From assembly GCA_021828195.1 (NCBI GenBank), contig JAKASQ010000002.1:344292-408291 (forward strand): DNA of 64,000 nt, in the 5' to 3' direction. Positions 21,165 through 27,562 of this stretch are shown here, piece by piece. Source of the DNA: Thermoplasmata archaeon. GTDB lineage: Archaea; Thermoplasmatota; Thermoplasmata; Lutacidiplasmatales; UBA184. Every line of letters begins with the position of its first letter. The first letter of the stretch is position 1. The notes below the pieces were generated by a model. It was not told the DNA's origin. It made no database searches and worked only from the letters and a program-made list of their open reading frames with translations. The translations under genes were made by a program, and so were the position numbers.

Positions 21165-21986
21165 ATGCCGGAGGAGAAGTTGCCCGACACCCCGGAGACG
21201 GAGCCCGCTCGAGCCGGCGCGCGGGTCCATTCGGCGGAAATCTTCTGCGTAGCCTGCGATCGACTCACGTCCCACCGCATCCTACACGTCGACCGCACGG
21301 GCCACCGGCCCAACGCCCCGATGCGCGGAGTCGCTCGGTGCCGTGCCTGCGGGCTCGTCCACCCGTTCTCGTCGGCTCCACCGGCCTCCGTCCAGGTCGC
21401 CGAGATCATCTCGGAAGGGCCCGCCTCCACGCGACGGATGATCCAGTTGCCCGAAGCCCGCCGGCTCCAGGTCGGAAGCGGGGTACCCGAATCCGATGTT
21501 CCGGTGATCATCCACAAGATTGAGAATCGCCTGGGCCGTCCCGTGCCCGAGGCCCGGTCCGAGGAGATCGGGACCTTGTGGGTGACGCGCGATCTCGGTG
21601 CGGTCGTGCCCGTCTCGATCGTCGAAGGTCGCCGCACGCGCCCCGCCCGGCTCGTCGTGCCTCGGGAGACGATCCTCGTCGTGGGCGAGCGGATCCGAGT
21701 CGAGGAGACCGAGATCGTGATCGCCGGGCTGCGCGCCCGCGCTCGAAGCTGGCGAAAGCCGGGCGACGCCTTCCCCGCGGGCGAGGTCATCCGGCTCTAC
21801 GGGCGGCGCAACGTGATGCCGCCGGCGGGAAGGAGCGACTGGAGGAGCGATCGGGAGATCCCCAGCTCGCGGGCGAGTACGGACTCCCGTCCGGACCGGA
21901 CCCGTTCGTCCCCCGGTGTGAGAAGGACGCGCAGTCCCCCGCGGGGAGCGAACGCCGAGGGCGGAGCGACCGTCCACAGTTCGTGA
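21165..21986 (+). CDS. HVO_0476-like archaeal zinc-finger protein
   Basis: CVAC...HRIL...RCRACGLVH zinc ribbon followed by two similar beta domains ending IGTLW and VIRLYGRR. Confidence 0.75.
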   Translation: MPEEKLPDTPETEPARAGARVHSAEIFCVACDRLTSHRILHVDRTGHRPNAPMRGVARCRACGLVHPFSSAPPASVQVAEIISEGPASTRRMIQLPEARRLQVGSGVPESDVPVIIHKIENRLGRPVPEARSEEIGTLWVTRDLGAVVPVSIVEGRRTRPARLVVPRETILVVGERIRVEETEIVIAGLRARARSWRKPGDAFPAGEVIRLYGRRNVMPPAGRSDWRSDREIPSSRASTDSRPDRTRSSPGVRRTRSPPRGANAEGGATVHSS

Positions 21987-24031
21987 CCCTCGTAGGTCAC
22001 GGTCCCGATCCCGAGCTCGAGCGGCAGGTCCTTCAGAACGTTCTTCGTCCCCTCGATGACCCAGGCTCCCTTCGCCACGAACTCCCCGGTGTTCGGGGAT
22101 TTCGATACCTGCTCCGGCTGGACCCAGAACGCCGAAGCCGAGGCGAGACCCGCGCGCCAGGCCTTCGAGAACGCCACGGCCCACTGGGCCGCCTCGCGGA
22201 TCGTCACCTCGGTGACCGCCGGTCGTCCCGGATCGGGCCGTTTGACGATCACGCTCGCCGCGCCATGGAGATCGGCGTGCAGGTACACGTCCCCCTCCCG
22301 CAGGTGGCGACGCACCACGAGATCGTTCGAGGCCGCATCGCGCCCCGCGATCACTATCGCTCCTTCGGAAGAGAGGAACCAGCGGTAGCGTTCGAACCAG
22401 CGGGGTTTGCGCGCCCGCGAGGCCGGAGTTTCGGCCGAGGGGGCCCGCGCGGCGGTGCTCGGAGTCTGGGCAAGGCGCGCCTCCGTCTCCGCCAGTGCGG
22501 TGCGGGCCCCCCGGAGCTTGCTCTGAAGGCGCTTGCCTTCCTCGTAGAGTGCCTGGGCCGATCCTTGCAACGGTCGATCGAGCTGCAGGGGGATGGAACG
22601 CTCCCCGAGACGGACGGCCACCTCCCGCTTCTCCGAGCCCTCCGCGCGGGCCCGTGCCAGGGCGGCCTCCGCCTCCTGGTAGTGAGCATAGATCGACTCT
22701 GCCTGGGCACTGAGCTCTTGTGCGGCGGATTCCAGGGACTCAATCGCGGTGCGCTGGCGGGCCGCCTGCCGTTCGAGGTCCTCCCGCGCCTTGTCGACCG
22801 CCGAAATCTCGACAGGCACGGCCGCGGTCGTGACCGTGCGGAAGTACCGATAGGCGGCCTCGCCGAACGTGGGGGTTTCCACCTCTCGGACCGACGGGTC
22901 GGCCGCCCAGCGCAGCCCATGGTAGGGGCTGGCGTCGACAGGAACCCCGTCGCGCTCGTAGAGGTATCCTCGGGGAGGATCTCCGAGCTCTGCGTAGACT
23001 TCGCGGATCGCGCGAAGGAGGGCCGGGGCGATCCGTGTGGCGTCGGTCGACGCGGGTCCGTCCGGGATGCCGGACCTTGCGAGGATCTCCTCGGCGATCG
23101 GACCCCCGAGGGCGAGCCGGGCCGCGAGCGTGCTCGAGAGATCCGTCCGGGAGCGGGCGAGCTCTCGTTCGAGCGTCTCGCGGTCGGCACTCCAGGGGTC
23201 CGCCCGCTCCGGCGGGCGAGTGTACTCGGCCCCGACCCGCATCGTCCGGTGCGCCCATGTCCGAGGTCGGGCGACGGCGGCGATCTGTCCCCCTCGGGTC
23301 ACGAGCAAGTTCCCGGGTCCGAAGATCTCGAGGATCAGTCCGAGCTTCTCGCCGTCCGCACGCCGAAACTCGAGCTCGACGTACCGCTCCCCACGCGGTT
23401 CGCTCACCGTGTGAAGGATCGAACCGGAGAGGAGCCGGCGCAGCTCCTTGGCAAGGGGGGTCAGCTCCTCGGCGTGCTCGGCCCGCTCCTCGACCAGCGC
23501 CCCGTAGCGCCCGGGCACGAGCACGAGCTCGCGGCGGCCGGCCGATGCGGACCGCATGGTGACGGACCAGCCTCCCCCCGGGAGGTCGAACGCCTTGTCA
23601 ATGCGCCCGTGGACGGCCCTTCGGAGCTCGCGCGAGAGCGCGAGCATGTCGAGGGCGCTGAACCGGTCCTTGGGCGTGGGCTGAGACGTGACATCTTCCC
23701 CCGAACTCGTTCGGGGGCTTCCTCGGCGCGGTGTGGCGCCACCTTCACCGGCCCCACTTACAAGAGGGTGTTGCGCCCCCCTCCCTTCGGGGAGGGGGGT
23801 TTCGGATGGGGTGTCTCCATCCCTGGTGTCCGTCTCCGGCTTGGGTGCCACACCGCGCCGGACGGTTCCTGCTTCACGGACCCGGCTCGCTCCCGAGGGA
23901 GTGGAGGCCGCAGTTTCTGCAGGTGCGAATACCCCGGTGCCCCCGGGTACGACGGACCCGTGTGGTGCGAGTACTTCAGGCTCGCTAACCCCCCTACAAG
24001 TAGGGGGGCCTGCGCTCGCCGGCTTCGTCAA
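21797..24031 (-). CDS. rqcH: Ribosome quality control factor Rqc2/RqcH (NFACT), interrupted in frame by a 339-nt element
   Basis: FSALD..ALSREL N-terminus, EIFGPGNLLV, WFERYRWF, GRDAASND, HADLHGA, QVSKSP.TGEFV.KGAWVI; proposed TTG start at 24031 (alternative GTG at 24055). Confidence 0.9.
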   Translation of the reverse strand: MTKPASAGPPTCRGVSEPEVLAPHGSVVPGGTGVFAPAETAASTPSGASRVREAGTVRRGVAPKPETDTRDGDTPSETPLPEGRGAQHPLVSGAGEGGATPRRGSPRTSSGEDVTSQPTPKDRFSALDMLALSRELRRAVHGRIDKAFDLPGGGWSVTMRSASAGRRELVLVPGRYGALVEERAEHAEELTPLAKELRRLLSGSILHTVSEPRGERYVELEFRRADGEKLGLILEIFGPGNLLVTRGGQIAAVARPRTWAHRTMRVGAEYTRPPERADPWSADRETLERELARSRTDLSSTLAARLALGGPIAEEILARSGIPDGPASTDATRIAPALLRAIREVYAELGDPPRGYLYERDGVPVDASPYHGLRWAADPSVREVETPTFGEAAYRYFRTVTTAAVPVEISAVDKAREDLERQAARQRTAIESLESAAQELSAQAESIYAHYQEAEAALARARAEGSEKREVAVRLGERSIPLQLDRPLQGSAQALYEEGKRLQSKLRGARTALAETEARLAQTPSTAARAPSAETPASRARKPRWFERYRWFLSSEGAIVIAGRDAASNDLVVRRHLREGDVYLHADLHGAASVIVKRPDPGRPAVTEVTIREAAQWAVAFSKAWRAGLASASAFWVQPEQVSKSPNTGEFVAKGAWVIEGTKNVLKDLPLELGIGTVTYEGHELWTVAPPSAFAPRGGLRVLLTPGDERVRSGRESVLARELGISRSLLQSLLPAGGITLRRP
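23688..24026 (-). mobile_element. Non-autonomous IS200/IS605-family element (PATE-like) with a TnpB omegaRNA-like scaffold
   Basis: Follows TTGAC; left guide CAGG plus hairpin CCCCCCTAC-TT-GTAGGGGGG; right guide GAAG plus hairpin CCCCCGAAC-GA-GTTCGGGGG, ending GATGTCAC; internal CCTGC...GTGAAGCAGGAA; no tnpA or tnpB. Confidence 0.8.
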
Positions 24032-24072
24032 CGTACCTTCCGCCTCGCCGAACACACCGACCCGACGGCGGG

Positions 24073-24080
24073 CCTTAAGG
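24073..24080. promoter_or_regulatory. Palindromic TATA-like box between the divergent rqc2 and acyl-CoA dehydrogenase genes
   Basis: CCTTAAGG is the clearest TATA-like sequence in the short gap; similar CTTAAG/TTTATA motifs precede many genes in this window. Confidence 0.5.
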
Positions 24081-24120
24081 GTTGGTTGGCATCTGCGCGG
24101 GCATGCGCCCGGCGGGGATC

Positions 24121-25248
24121 ATGGGCACGCCCGACTGGCGGCAGCGGGCTCGAAGGTTCGTGAGCGAGCGCCTCGCTCCGATCGCGGCAGATATCGATCG
24201 AACCGACCAGGTACCTTCCGACCTGATGGCGATCCTCGGCAGGGAAGGGTTCACGGGCCTCGGCATCCCGGCGGAGTGGGGGGGGAGCGATGGGAACTCG
24301 GAGTCGACCGCAGCGGTCCTCGAGGAGCTCGCAGGGGCAAGCGCGGCGGTCGCCACCGATCTCTCCGTCCATCTCTCGGTCTGCGCGGCCCCGATCCTCC
24401 GATGGGGGACCGATGCGCAGCGAACGCGATTCCTTCGCCCGCTCGCGGCGGGCCGTTTCCTCGGTGCGTTCGGACTGACCGAGCCCGGGGTGGGCTCCGA
24501 CGCGGCGCGTCTCGCCACTCGATACGAACGAGCGCCGAACGGCTTTCGACTCCGCGGCTCGAAGATGTTCATCACCAACGGTGCATCCGCCGCCGTCGTG
24601 CTCGCCTTCGCCACGCGCGACCCCGCTCTCGGTTCCCGGGGGATCTCCGCCTTCCTGGTCCCCCAAGGCACTCCGGGGTACTCGGTCGCTCAGCGCCTGG
24701 ACAAGATGGGGATCCACGGGAGCGAAACGACCGAGCTCGTCTTCGAAGACGCCCACCTTCCCGAGGACGCTCTGCTCGGAGCGGAAGGAGAGGGACTTTC
24801 GATCGCGCTCGGCGCGCTCGCCGGGGGCCGGATCGGCATCGCCGCGTGCGCGCTCGGCGTCGCACGTGCCGCCTTCGAGGAGATGTGCCGGTCCGCCCGA
24901 CTTCGCAGCCACGAAGAGGATCGCGCCTGCGTGGCGCGCGCCTACGTCGAACTGGAGTCCGCCCGGGCCCTGGTTGAGGCTGCGGCGCGCGCGAAGGACG
25001 CCGGTCGACCCTTCGAGATCGCCGCCTCCGCCGCGAAGCTGGCCGCTTCGGGAGCGGCGGTCTCGATCGCGTCGGTGGGGCTCGACATCGCGGGCCCCGC
25101 TGGGACCCGGGCCGGGCATCTGGCGGAGCGCCTGTTGCGCGACGCTCGGGTCTTCCCCATCGTGGAGGGCACGACCGAGATCCAGGAGCGGCTCCTCGGC
25201 CGCTCGCTGATCGAGCAGGGTGGACCCTCCGCCGAGCGAACCCCTTAG
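24121..25248 (+). CDS. Acyl-CoA dehydrogenase family protein
   Basis: AFGLTEPGVGSDA, GSKMFITNG, KMGIHGSET, GRIGIAA, IVEGTTEIQ. Confidence 0.9.
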   Translation: MGTPDWRQRARRFVSERLAPIAADIDRTDQVPSDLMAILGREGFTGLGIPAEWGGSDGNSESTAAVLEELAGASAAVATDLSVHLSVCAAPILRWGTDAQRTRFLRPLAAGRFLGAFGLTEPGVGSDAARLATRYERAPNGFRLRGSKMFITNGASAAVVLAFATRDPALGSRGISAFLVPQGTPGYSVAQRLDKMGIHGSETTELVFEDAHLPEDALLGAEGEGLSIALGALAGGRIGIAACALGVARAAFEEMCRSARLRSHEEDRACVARAYVELESARALVEAAARAKDAGRPFEIAASAAKLAASGAAVSIASVGLDIAGPAGTRAGHLAERLLRDARVFPIVEGTTEIQERLLGRSLIEQGGPSAERTP

Positions 25249-25273
25249 TAACGTCGCGAGGTCACAACCACGG

Positions 25274-27562
25274 ATGCCGCGGTCCCGCTCCTCGCATGCA
25301 TCGCCGTCGTCTCCCCCTGCGGCGTCCGCCCCCGTCGCCTCATTTGGGCTCGACCCGGAGTGGGTGCGCATCCTCGGAGAGCAAGGGATCGAGTCGTTCT
25401 ACCCACCCCAGGCCGCCGCGGTGGGGCCGGTCATGGCCGGCGAGAGCCTGCTGCTCGCCTGCCCCACCGCGAGCGGCAAGTCCCTGATCGCCTACCTCGC
25501 TCTGCTGCGCGCCGCTCGCGCGGGCCGGACCGGGCTCTACCTCGTGCCGTTGCGCGCGCTCGCACGGGAGAAGGCGGAGGAGCTGAAGGCATTCGAGGAG
25601 CTTGGCGTCCGCGTCGGGATCTCGATCGGGGACTTCGATCTGCGCGCAGACCAGCTCGAGCGCCTCGATATCCTGGTCGCGACGAGCGAGAAGGCCGATG
25701 CGCTGCTGCGCCGCGGGAGTCCCTGGCTCGATCGGCTGGGGGTCGTCGTCGCCGACGAGGTGCACCTCTTGAGGGACCCCGATCGAGGACCCACGCTCGA
25801 GGTCAGCCTCACCCGATTGCGGCGCTCCTATCCGGATCTGCAGCTCGTGGCCCTTTCCGCCACGGTCGGTAATTCCCTCGCGGTGGCCAAGTGGCTCCAA
25901 GCCCGCCACATCGCGAGCGACTTCCGGCCCGTTCCGCTCAAGAGCGGCGTGTACTACGACGGGCGGATCGCCTTCACCGATCTGTCGATCCGCGAGATCC
26001 CGGGAAACACCGAGGCCGTTCCACGCCTCGTTCGATCGGTGATCGAGGAAGGGGGCCAAGCGCTCGTCTTCGTGAACACGCGGAAGGCGAGCGAAGTGGC
26101 CGCCCAGGGCCTCACGGGCACGGTCCGCCCGCTCTTGTCGGGGGAGGAGCGGACGCGGGCCCACGCGGCGGCGGAGGAGCTCGGGAGCGTCTCGGAGGAG
26201 GAGACGGAGGGCGTCCGCAAGCTCGCCGCTCTCGTTCCGCACGGCGTCGCCTACCACAACGCCTCGCTCACGAACCCGGAGCGGGAAGTGATCGAGCGCG
26301 CGTTCCGCGAGCGTGCCTTGAAGGTGCTCGTCGCGACGCCCACCCTCGCCGCGGGCATCAACCTGCCCGCGAGGCGCGTCATCGTGCGGGACACCTATCG
26401 CTACGACGATCGGCTCGGCATGCAGGCGCCGATCCCCGCCCTGGAGGTGCACCAGATGTGCGGGCGCGCGGGCCGACCCCGGTACGACACGGTCGGGGAG
26501 GCCGTCCTCATCGCCCGGGATGCCGACCAGGAGGAGCGACTGTTCGATGCGTATCTCTCGGCGCCCCCGGAAGATATCGAGAGCCGGTTGGCGGCGGAGC
26601 CCGCGCTCCGGATGCACATCCTCGCACTGGTCGCGAGTGGAGCGGTGGCGACCGAGGAGGAGCTCGAGTCGTTCTTCGGCGCTACGTTCTACGGCCAGAC
26701 GCTTCCCTGGCGCGATCTCGCGGACCAGGTCCGGCGGGTGCGCAGCTTCCTGGAGACCAACGACTTCCTCGCTCCCTCGCCGGGTCTACGCGCCACGCCG
26801 TTCGGACAGCTGACGAGCGAGCTCTACCTCGATCCCCTCAGCGCGATCGTCGTCCGGCAGATGCTCGATCGAGCGCCGATCGGCGTGCGCCCGTTCGCGA
26901 TCTTGGCCGGCGTCGCAGCCACTCCGGACCTGCCGCCGCTCTTCCTGCGGCGCGGGGAGGAGTCGAACCTGCTTGGACGATTCACGGACGAGGCGGAGGA
27001 ACTCTTGATCAAGCCGGAGGAAGCACCGCTCGACCTCGACCTCGATTTCTTCCTGTCGACCATCAAGACGGCGAGCGTGCTCGAGGCCTGGATCGATGAG
27101 ACCCCGATCCTCGAGATCAGCGAGCGGTTCGGGATCGGCGCCGGGGACCTGCGCGCCAAGGTCGAGGACGCGAACTGGCTCCTCTTCGCATCGAGCCGGA
27201 TCGCCGCGCGCTTTCACCGGCGTCTCACCCGGCCGATCGATGATCTCTCCCTCCGGGTGCAGTACGGGGTCCGTGAGGAGCTGCTCGATCTCGTGCGGCT
27301 GCGGGGCATCGGGCGGGTGCGCGCACGCGCGCTGCGCCGGGCGGGATTCCCCGACCGGGAGACCCTTCGCGCCGCCCCGCTCGACCGCGTGGAGCAGGCG
27401 CTTCGATCGCGCAAGCTCGCGGAGTCCGTACTCAGTCAGGTGCGGCGACCGGGGAGCGCTCCCCCGTCGGAGATTGATCCGGGGGAGCCCACCCCGACGA
27501 CCACGGCCCGCCGACGCTCGGTCCGGACCCTTGAGGAGTATCCCGACCCGGCGGAACCGTGA
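25274..27562 (+). CDS. hel308: Hel308/Ski2-like DNA helicase
   Basis: PTASGKS, DEVH, LSAT, TPTLAAGINLPA, QMCGRAGRP, C-terminal GIGRVRARAL. Confidence 0.93.
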   Translation: MPRSRSSHASPSSPPAASAPVASFGLDPEWVRILGEQGIESFYPPQAAAVGPVMAGESLLLACPTASGKSLIAYLALLRAARAGRTGLYLVPLRALAREKAEELKAFEELGVRVGISIGDFDLRADQLERLDILVATSEKADALLRRGSPWLDRLGVVVADEVHLLRDPDRGPTLEVSLTRLRRSYPDLQLVALSATVGNSLAVAKWLQARHIASDFRPVPLKSGVYYDGRIAFTDLSIREIPGNTEAVPRLVRSVIEEGGQALVFVNTRKASEVAAQGLTGTVRPLLSGEERTRAHAAAEELGSVSEEETEGVRKLAALVPHGVAYHNASLTNPEREVIERAFRERALKVLVATPTLAAGINLPARRVIVRDTYRYDDRLGMQAPIPALEVHQMCGRAGRPRYDTVGEAVLIARDADQEERLFDAYLSAPPEDIESRLAAEPALRMHILALVASGAVATEEELESFFGATFYGQTLPWRDLADQVRRVRSFLETNDFLAPSPGLRATPFGQLTSELYLDPLSAIVVRQMLDRAPIGVRPFAILAGVAATPDLPPLFLRRGEESNLLGRFTDEAEELLIKPEEAPLDLDLDFFLSTIKTASVLEAWIDETPILEISERFGIGAGDLRAKVEDANWLLFASSRIAARFHRRLTRPIDDLSLRVQYGVREELLDLVRLRGIGRVRARALRRAGFPDRETLRAAPLDRVEQALRSRKLAESVLSQVRRPGSAPPSEIDPGEPTPTTTARRRSVRTLEEYPDPAEP

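Follow-up and report, generated by a model that had tools for sequence, protein, structure and literature searches.

The stretch of DNA analysed here, called the window, comprises 64,000 nucleotides (nt) of contig JAKASQ010000002.1 (assembly GCA_021828195.1, positions 344,292 to 408,291 of the forward strand) from a Thermoplasmata archaeon. The genome carrying the window (G000) has 1.62 Mb, 67% G+C, and 7 contigs. We investigated the gene rqc2, also named rqcH, which encodes RqcH, and a 339-nt insert at its start. The gene was located in a minus-strand open reading frame (ORF) at 21797..24055, in which NFACT_N began at ORF residue 136 and was followed by NFACT-R_1 (Pfam E-values of 4.8e-29 for NFACT_N and 4.1e-32 for NFACT-R). 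The start codon TTG was assigned to 24031-24029 of the minus strand by orthologue alignment. It was preceded by the 5' leader of rqc2 at 24032..24060, with the purine-rich GAGGCGGAAGG, which was unchanged, since it was near-identical in the empty allele of a sister genome. The insert occupies 24026..23688 of the minus strand, between TTGAC/ and /GTCTCAG, where the slash marks the boundary. Across the insert the minus strand reads ...GAGGCGGAAGGTACGTTGAC/GAAGCCGGCG...GGGGGAAGATGTCAC/GTCTCAGCCCACG, and in longer excerpts GAGGCGGAAGGTACGTTGAC/GAAGCCGGCGAGCGCAGGCCCCCCTACTTGTAGGGGGG ... GGAAGCCCCCGAACGAGTTCGGGGGAAGATGTCAC/GTCTCAGCCCACGCCC. The rest of the gene, 630 codons at 21797..23687 of the minus strand, was intact. 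It contained NFACT_N and NFACT-R_1 and scored 447 bits against the NCBIfam profile RqcH_arch, whose equivalog cut-off is 400. The rqc2 frame was stop-free from GTG 24055 or TTG 24031, across the insert, and into the NFACT domains, and the insert added 113 stop-free codons to the gene. From the sequence, the insertion was placed within codon 2 of rqc2 (TTG AC/G), between coding bases 5 and 6, because the TTG of both this genome and its sister fell at the position of the orthologues' start codon. The analysis confirmed that the 339 nt were a real mobile element of a largely ordinary kind in an unusual place. The insert and its stop-free frame had been proposed from the sequence in an original prediction, and both were borne out; the interval given there, 23688-24031, includes the 5-nt TTGAC target.

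The insert, copy A, was classified as a protein-less IS200/IS605-family element, a palindrome-associated transposable element (PATE), at 23688..24026 of the minus strand. The classification was based on its copies and on an empty site. BLAST of the 339 nt against its own genome gave 19 matches at E <= 1e-3. Three other loci (E of 2e-31, 3e-29, and 6e-22) were matched over most or part of their length. Because the 339 nt matched three other loci of the genome plus the ends of longer elements, the repeat was not due to chance. Four protein-less copies were found in the genome, namely A (339 nt), B (336 nt), C (342 nt, after its left boundary was set 9 nt further outward), and D (336 nt). Copies A, B, and C were mutually 67-71% identical. 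Four complete long elements of 1361-1373 nt, E (G000 C2:69409), F (C6:574581), G (C6:619617), and H (C6:459677), had both ends of copy A, and each carried an open tnpB frame of ~409 codons. The frame of copy F, the only one scanned, matched Pfam HTH_OrfB_IS605, OrfB_IS605, and Cas12f1-like_TNB, and it scored 248 bits against NCBIfam guided_TnpB (cut-off of 100). The acidic RuvC motifs VDLG, FEDM, and DRDLNAA were visible in the tnpB element sequences, and we take them to be the catalytic motifs of these TnpBs. A fifth tnpB copy, copy I, shared the inner and right-end parts only. The word (A/T/G)TGAC preceded all 12 copies with a defined left end, in line with the predicted further copies after (T)TGAC, and every copy ended in (G/A)TCAC. 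Autonomous elements with the same ends had also been expected. The longer elements did carry tnpB, but tnpA was found in a different IS605-type element instead. The proposed identity of a non-autonomous IS200/IS605 element was upheld by the ends shared with tnpB elements, the hairpins, the fixed target word, and the absence of a duplication.

Relatives were also found outside the genome. Of the 61 genomes covered by a genus-wide DNA search, 4 (G000 among them) had matches at E <= 1e-8. No further protein-less copies were found in these 61 genomes outside G000, where the matches were limited to the first 48 nt of the left end. Pattern scans of public genome and metagenome contigs gave 11 loci, in which two contig pairs had been filed twice (L058 = L063, L060 = L064) and were counted once. 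Four of the loci were genuine relatives of 336, 341, 339, and 342 nt, all located after TGAC. L059, L062, L065, L067, and L068 lacked the hairpins and the TGAC flank and were dropped as chance matches. The contigs of L058/L063 and L060/L064 were titled Acidimicrobiales bacterium MAG009 (actinobacterial), which would be either mis-binning or a cross-domain distribution. Two solitary end-like matches were seen in G000, one to the left end at C3:35406-35438 (91% over 33 nt) and one to the right end at C4:37941-37984 (82% over 44 nt). Each is perhaps a remnant or the end of another member. In copies E-H, nt 2-4 were ATG or GTG in four of four, and the frame was open from there into tnpB. The MYQP start, at which the match to the HTH_OrfB_IS605 profile is found, follows ~29 codons further downstream.

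The site without the element was found in a close relative. The RqcH body was searched against 40 relatives, and a sister genome, G004, had a 95% identical RqcH. The open frame was 660 codons in G004 and 773 in G000, a difference of 113. In the DNA alignment, G004 reads ...GGATACGTTGTC-GTCTCAGCCC..., whereas G000 reads ...GGTACGTTGAC[339 nt]GTCTCAGCCC... The empty site of G004, ACGTTGTC-GTCTCAG, was exactly 339 nt shorter, with near-identical flanks and nothing duplicated or lost. An orthologous empty site of this kind had been predicted. The target word was TGTC in G004 compared to TGAC in G000. Copy C was also absent from its orthologous site in G004, which reads CGAC. The orthologous site of copy B ran into a contig end, and the resolved G004 sites were those of A and C (L011, L054). 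The TTGAC target preceding copy A (24027..24031 of the minus strand), which consists of TGAC with a non-C base, was defined by the copy flanks, the empty site, and the orthologue starts. It would also be the target-adjacent motif (TAM) of the TnpB nuclease. TGAC was missing in both resolved empty sites of G004. This fits sites that were never a target as well as TAM-less alleles that survived TnpB cutting (n=2).

The orthologues located the native start of the gene. N-termini were printed for 14 orthologous loci including L011, while 11 loci on the other strand and 5 without a hit were left unread. In 13 of the 14, the start codon was located 2-9 codons (mostly 3-5) before the motif (K/L)KDRF(T/S)xLD. 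The remaining locus, L036 (32% identical), had no recognisable N-terminus. One of the loci, L017, is from G018, a genome flagged as unpublished, and the conclusion is independent of it. The TTG had been proposed as the native start, and it did align with the start codon of the genus orthologues, M-x-x-x-PTPKDRF. None of the 13 motif-bearing loci conserved the inserted segment as protein.

The ends of copy A had the arrangement of IS200/IS605 elements. They begin with GAAGCC... and close with ...GTCAC, and these are not terminal inverted repeats. All features given here are on the minus strand. The left guide word CAGG (24009..24012, element nt 15-18) forms the four nucleotides immediately preceding the foot of the left hairpin on its 5' side, following the rule described in the available text of PMC3201880. 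The left subterminal hairpin, CCCCCCTAC-TT-GTAGGGGGG, occupies 23989..24008, is 18 nt from the left cleavage point, and corresponds to covarying helix 2. On the right, the guide word GAAG (23718..23721, element -34..-31) likewise occupies the four positions just before the foot of the right hairpin, as judged from the sequence and the copy alignment. The right subterminal hairpin, CCCCCGAAC-GA-GTTCGGGGG, occupies 23698..23717, corresponds to covarying helix 12, and is followed by 10 nt to the element end. The right cleavage word TCAC (23688..23691) is the last 4 nt of the element and was common to all copies. In the 8 copies, helix 2 was 95% paired and had 4 compensatory pairs, and helix 12 was 100% paired and had 3. 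The guide positions, nt 15-18 and -34..-31, each directly 5' of a hairpin foot, were those given in the original prediction. Between the left hairpin and nt 77 lies AAGTA (23972..23976), identified in the copy alignment. Its A51, A52, T54, and A55 (AAgTA) were invariant in 8 of 8 copies, and the tnpB elements have CTTATA or CTTATG there. As a speculation, AAGTA might be a TATA-like promoter box ~25 nt before nt 77. As judged from alignment and covariation, the region from nt 77 to 339 (23688..23950) shares homology with the omega-RNA region of the tnpB elements, which makes up their last 164 nt. The first 20 nt past the right end (GTCTCAG..., rqc2 codons 2-8, at 23668..23687) would be the omega-RNA guide, by position and by analogy with the accessible part of PMC10055086. 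Outside the element, the divergent neighbour at 24082..25248 of the plus strand is an acyl-CoA dehydrogenase gene, identified by a family scan.

The surroundings of copies B and C were also inspected. Copy B is located at G000 C2:236214-236549 (L004 1501-1836), ~45 nt upstream of a same-direction gene whose product begins MSEPTFRQMAVAVDGS. By eye, this gene resembles a universal stress protein, and an RNA read out of the element would enter it. Copy C (342 nt) is located on the minus strand at G000 C6:427956-428297 (L002 1501-1842). A small convergent gene (...VESTEDSILE) ends directly at this copy and takes its final base and its TGA stop from the reverse complement of the last bases of copy C (GTGAC). 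At the empty site of G004, the small gene ends in ...ILES-TAG.

The genome contained a single candidate transposase. One Y1_Tnp match was found, with 117-118 bits against a cut-off of 23. This sole tnpA of the genome is located in an IS605-type element at G000 C6:670795-672340 (L009). It is back to back (divergent) with a distant TnpB-like ORF, which had 25 bits for OrfB_IS605 (cut-off of 30.5) and 54 bits for the TNB domain. The left boundary of the tnpA element was apparently TCAT/ and the right one ...TCGTTGAC/, with TGAC closing the right end. Its left hairpin, CCCCCCAACTTGTTGGGGGG, was identical to the left hairpin of copy F, and its right hairpin, CCACCGA...TCGGTGG, resembled those of F, H, and D. 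In copy A, 18 nt separate the left hairpin from its cleavage point and 10 nt the right hairpin from its own, a geometry close to that of IS608. Across the family, the left guide position reads CA(A/G)G and the right one GAAG, with CAAG in most copies at the position where copy A has CAGG, and GAAC at a guide position in copy C. The right guide of IS608 is GAAT. In a pairing scheme drawn from the IS608 words, cleavage base 1 would pair with guide base 2, base 2 with guide base 1, and base 4 with guide base 4, and the third base, an A, would stand opposite an A. TGAC/CAAG and TCAC/GAAG fit this scheme; the words are invariant within the family, so that they give no covariation. The presumed words of the tnpA element, TCAT/GAGA and TGAC/CAAG, fit the same scheme. 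In the available description of IS608 (PMC3201880), cleavage occurs 3' of TTAC, 19 nt 5' of the left hairpin, TCAA is located 10 nt 3' of the right hairpin, and the 4-base guides are 5' of each hairpin foot.

The RNA of the element was analysed using the 8-copy alignment. The tnpB copies aligned over their final 164 nt with element nt 77-181 and 303-339, between which the protein-less copies have ~100 extra nt. This extra module within nt 77-339 is enclosed by a covarying long-range helix, in which 11 of 15 pairs were changed on both sides. RNAalifold gave 77 pairs, 29 of them with compensatory change. Pairing was found in 91% of cells compared to 37-52% when the partners were slid, and the 29 compensatory pairs compared to 7-15; because the structure was predicted from the same 8 sequences, this contrast is inflated. 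None of 500 shuffles reached the observed pairing values. The RNA of copy A alone folded at -182 kcal/mol (z = -4.4). These results suggested that nt 77-339 are omega-RNA-like, on the grounds of homology to tnpB 3' ends, covariation, and an RNA contig of one relative. A match to Sso133 had 24 bits compared to a gathering score of 44 and was rejected as chance. A signal recognition particle RNA or RNase P RNA gene was dropped as a candidate, with no Rfam match and with the repeat copies present.

The stretch was present in metagenome runs from mine drainage, sediment, soil, and wastewater. Contigs, not raw reads, were compared from three DNA runs of three further studies (X9, X11, and X13). The right junction was crossed at 23300-23821 in X9, 23300-23756 in X11, and 23300-23764 in X13. 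The left junction was crossed at 24001-24400 in X9 and X11 and at 23934-24240 in X13. Because both junctions were bridged in contigs of three further studies, the occupied allele was considered widespread. The inner element was covered by short contigs of several family copies only and was left out. No contig in the three runs joined across the element, and contigs drop rare variants. In the RNA library X19, a 267-nt contig with a depth of 5.2 covered 23440-23688 and then continued with 14 letters of the G004-type empty site. This contig belongs to a relative that lacks the element. The same library gave another contig, aligned to 23688-23724, which was 176 nt long and had a depth of 134 compared to 5.2 for rqc2. 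It contained the last 37 nt of the element, 127 nt inward (of whose first 30 letters 28 were those of copy E), and 12 nt of foreign flank. With 164 nt up to the right end of an E-like tnpB element plus the flank, it has the size and place expected of an omega RNA, and it looks like an abundant one from a relative; contigs do not prove RNA ends, and DNA may be present in RNA libraries.

We next considered the open frame through the element. All four genome copies had a length that was a multiple of three, and in none of them was there a stop in the frame from nt 2, the one used for tnpB in the long elements. Of the 20 remaining frames of these four copies, 3 were open. The composition estimate for an open frame by chance was ~0.08 per 112-codon frame (our own arithmetic). 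In the family, 7 of 8 lengths were divisible by three despite many indels that were not multiples of three. Four of the 8 members were stop-free in the tnpB frame. The four outside relatives had one stop each in that frame, and one of them has 341 nt. Copies B and D were intergenic and copy C was located between genes, which left one of the four genome copies intragenic. It had been expected that other copies would also be stop-free multiples of three within host ORFs. The length and the open frame held in the genome, but the other three copies were intergenic. The peptides of copies A-D were not conserved, and compensated frameshifts were observed between the copies. Because copy A was open in 3 of 6 frames, the other copies were outside genes, the outside relatives had stops, and the peptides were unconserved, the open rqc2 frame was mostly attributed to 67% G+C and the frame inherited from tnpB, as a by-product and not by design. 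This agreed with the caveat in the original prediction that the frame might be partly chance, and the open frame is only a mild surprise that counts for less than had been assumed there. It is conceivable, and in our view improbable, that the protein-less elements are kept translatable, serving both as omega-RNA genes and as read-through linkers, with RqcH working behind a 113-residue disordered leader. If this were true, an IS200/IS605 element could spread into coding regions, and it would be an RNA-guided parallel in archaea to the Rickettsia palindromic elements (RPEs).

Taken together, copy A is very probably a non-autonomous IS200/IS605-family PATE that arose and acts as follows. It joins a left end with its hairpin (nt 1-76) to a part, nt 77-339, that corresponds to the 3' portion of an IS1341-type tnpB element, with the omega-RNA region and the right end. 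A Y1 transposase (TnpA) acting in trans would have inserted the element in single-stranded form immediately 3' of TGAC, with no target duplication. Transcription in the rqc2 sense would give an omega RNA whose guide is the first ~16-20 nt of downstream rqc2. The resident TnpB could then cut empty TTGAC-GTCTCAG alleles and so keep the element in place. Several observations weigh against this. The sole tnpA of the genome lies in an element whose left cleavage word, in our own reading, is apparently TCAT and not TGAC; mobilisation in trans is for this reason no more than plausible. Copy A departs by its CAGG from the CAAG of most copies, and because CAGG and GAAC stand at guide positions, copies A and C may move poorly. 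The protein-less copies carry ~100 nt that are absent from the resident tnpB elements, and the resident TnpB may for that reason not accept the RNA of copy A. No Rfam match was found at E <= 1 in 22500-25500, except for the sub-threshold Sso133. The only RNA contig across the site derives from the empty-site relative, and rare empty alleles would be invisible to contigs. Finally, the six in-element differences in the X9 contig were all non-synonymous in the rqc2 frame, with no stop (by hand). Because all six substitutions of this other population were non-synonymous, the leader is not conserved as protein.

The state of the host gene was weighed separately. The initiation signals were all located upstream of the insertion and were the same as in the empty allele. 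With these signals upstream and 113 sense codons following, read-through translation was therefore the default expectation. RqcH with a Pro/Gly/Ala/Ser/Thr/Arg-rich 113-residue leader made from the old TTG was judged an evenly balanced proposition. The insertion may instead have knocked the gene out, if the hairpins after the start or the 113-residue leader abolish RqcH, and the gene would then be a young undecayed pseudogene. RqcH is usually dispensable in the laboratory. It is single-copy here (one match in G000), and the strong fold of the copy A RNA would fit a knock-out. The RqcH of G000 and G004 differed at 30 of 630 positions (our own count). Nine of these differences could be polarised by eye, on the agreement of 4 or more of the 5 outgroups; 6 were derived in G000 and 3 in G004, which leans the same way. 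However, the 6 to 3 split was not significant and the changes were conservative. The 630 codons had no stop or frameshift, the RqcH_arch score exceeded the equivalog cut-off, and in our reading of the alignment G000 kept the consensus residue wherever the six other sequences agreed. In addition, the occupied allele in the three further studies had at most 9 differences per ~500 nt, and the covered frame was open (codons by hand). A knock-out was thus considered unlikely, although it deserves attention. A downstream restart would use the ATG at 23647, the native Met15, and give RqcH short of 14 residues. In-frame ATG, GTG, or TTG codons occur only at 24055, 24031, 23851, and 23647. Little of the modelled domain would be lost by such a restart, as the RqcH_arch profile begins at residue 11 and position 4 of NFACT_N is at residue 14. 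However, K7, D8, R9, F10, L13, and D14, invariant in 7 of 7 genus sequences aligned, would all be lost, and no purine-rich stretch precedes 23647 (sequence cggttcagcgccctcgac). Because the Met is also in the G004 empty allele, Met15 is no response to the insertion, and a restart there was considered very unlikely. The ATG at the right end (GAAG ATG TCAC) was rejected as a new start, being out of the rqc2 frame.

Other readings concern the fate of the element itself. TnpA might excise it precisely in part of the population and restore TTG ACG TCT..., which would make the insertion a reversible switch. Peel-and-paste excision is scarless in the available text of PMC3201880 and PMC10055086, and a tnpA gene is present. 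Both A and C were missing in the 95%-identical sister, though A, B, and C resemble one another far less closely. The absence of a joining contig in the three DNA runs argues weakly in the opposite direction. The sister sites read TGTC and CGAC, not TGAC, which fits a site that was never a target as well as one that was excised. Such a switch seems rather improbable to us. The alternative of removal from the mRNA, through IStron-like self-splicing or as a bulge-helix-bulge intron of the archaeal type, had been mentioned in the original prediction and found no support. The RNA of the element is highly structured, and IS605-family elements fused to group I introns exist according to the consulted portion of a preprint (10.1101/2023.11.20.567912). 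However, no group I or group II intron or other family matched at E <= 1 in 22500-25500, and the conserved structure was made up of the hairpins at the transposon ends together with the part that shares homology with the 3' ends of tnpB. No spliced joint was seen in the RNA contigs, all of which come from outside the occupied allele. Splicing of the element was thus regarded as extremely unlikely. An open frame and a structured RNA might also be expected of a native N-terminal domain or a separate housekeeping RNA gene. This last reading, to which we assign next to no probability, was ruled out by the copies, the G004 empty site, and the orthologue starts. Eight copies stood at unrelated sites with sharp TGAC/TCAC boundaries, the peptide was unconserved between them with shifting frames, and all 13 motif-bearing loci start just before (K/L)KDRF.

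A mobile PATE in rqc2 has consequences for annotation and for experiments. The RqcH found here should not be counted as a 752-residue protein with a novel N-terminal domain. The position five bases into a conserved ribosome-rescue gene, in an open frame and with the allele seen in contigs of three further studies, raises the question of whether such elements can persist in genes as translated leaders. If they can, annotation of high-G+C genomes may be missing PATEs within genes and listing them as unusual N-terminal extensions. As a natural example, the locus combines precisely defined ends and an empty allele with resident tnpB relatives, one tnpA, and a covarying RNA structure, which makes this archaeal family readily accessible to bench work.

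Copy A was compared with known systems on the basis of the available parts of the cited papers. IStrons combine an IS605- or IS607-family element with a group I intron, and they likewise place an IS605-family element in a gene without destroying the gene (10.1101/2023.11.20.567912). In contrast, copy A had no intron family match, and its tolerance, if any, would be via read-through translation. RPEs and intragenic miniature inverted-repeat transposable elements are also small in-frame repeats with potential for translational fusion (PMC10969869). However, RPEs have a conserved peptide and are mostly intragenic (PMC10969869), whereas the peptide here was unconserved, one of the four genome copies was intragenic, and four of four relatives from other metagenomes had a stop in the same frame. 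The ends were like those of the 'peel and paste' paradigms IS608 and ISDra2, with the left cleavage word outside the element and ~19 nt 5' of the hairpin, the right word 10 nt 3' of the hairpin, guides 5' of the feet, insertion 3' of the word, and scarless excision (PMC3201880). The words were different, TGAC/TCAC with guides CA(A/G)G/GAAG in copy A compared to TTAC/TCAA with the left guide AAAG in IS608 (PMC3201880), and unlike both paradigms copy A has no tnpA inside.

The closest resemblance was to two groups of PATEs. The PATE-like elements of Geobacillus stearothermophilus encode omega RNAs for TnpB in trans (PMC10055086). They are protein-less as well, with tnpB-family ends, a proposed movement by TnpA encoded elsewhere, and a TAM that is the transposase target word beside the left end (PMC10055086). 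Unlike in Geobacillus, the omega-RNA role of copy A is suggested by homology to tnpB 3' ends, covariation, and the RNA contig of one relative. PATEs were defined in Haloquadratum walsbyi and occur in other haloarchaea too (PMC3119063). The literature searches made here listed no PATE inside rqcH/rqc2. Like haloarchaeal PATEs, copy A is too short for a transposase, has no terminal inverted repeats and no target duplication, and carries near-terminal palindromes common to IS605/IS1341-type elements (PMC3119063). Like them, it derives from tnpB elements by core loss, in a type of element where some members keep part of the tnpB C-terminal region and the genome has one or no intact IS200-type transposase (PMC3119063). 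In contrast to haloarchaeal PATEs, its host is an archaeon of 67% G+C from metagenomes of the mine-drainage type, it has an additional structured module of ~100 nt absent from the resident tnpB elements, and it is located within the second codon of a conserved gene with an open frame. The kind of element is thus already known as a PATE, and its position inside rqc2 is notable.

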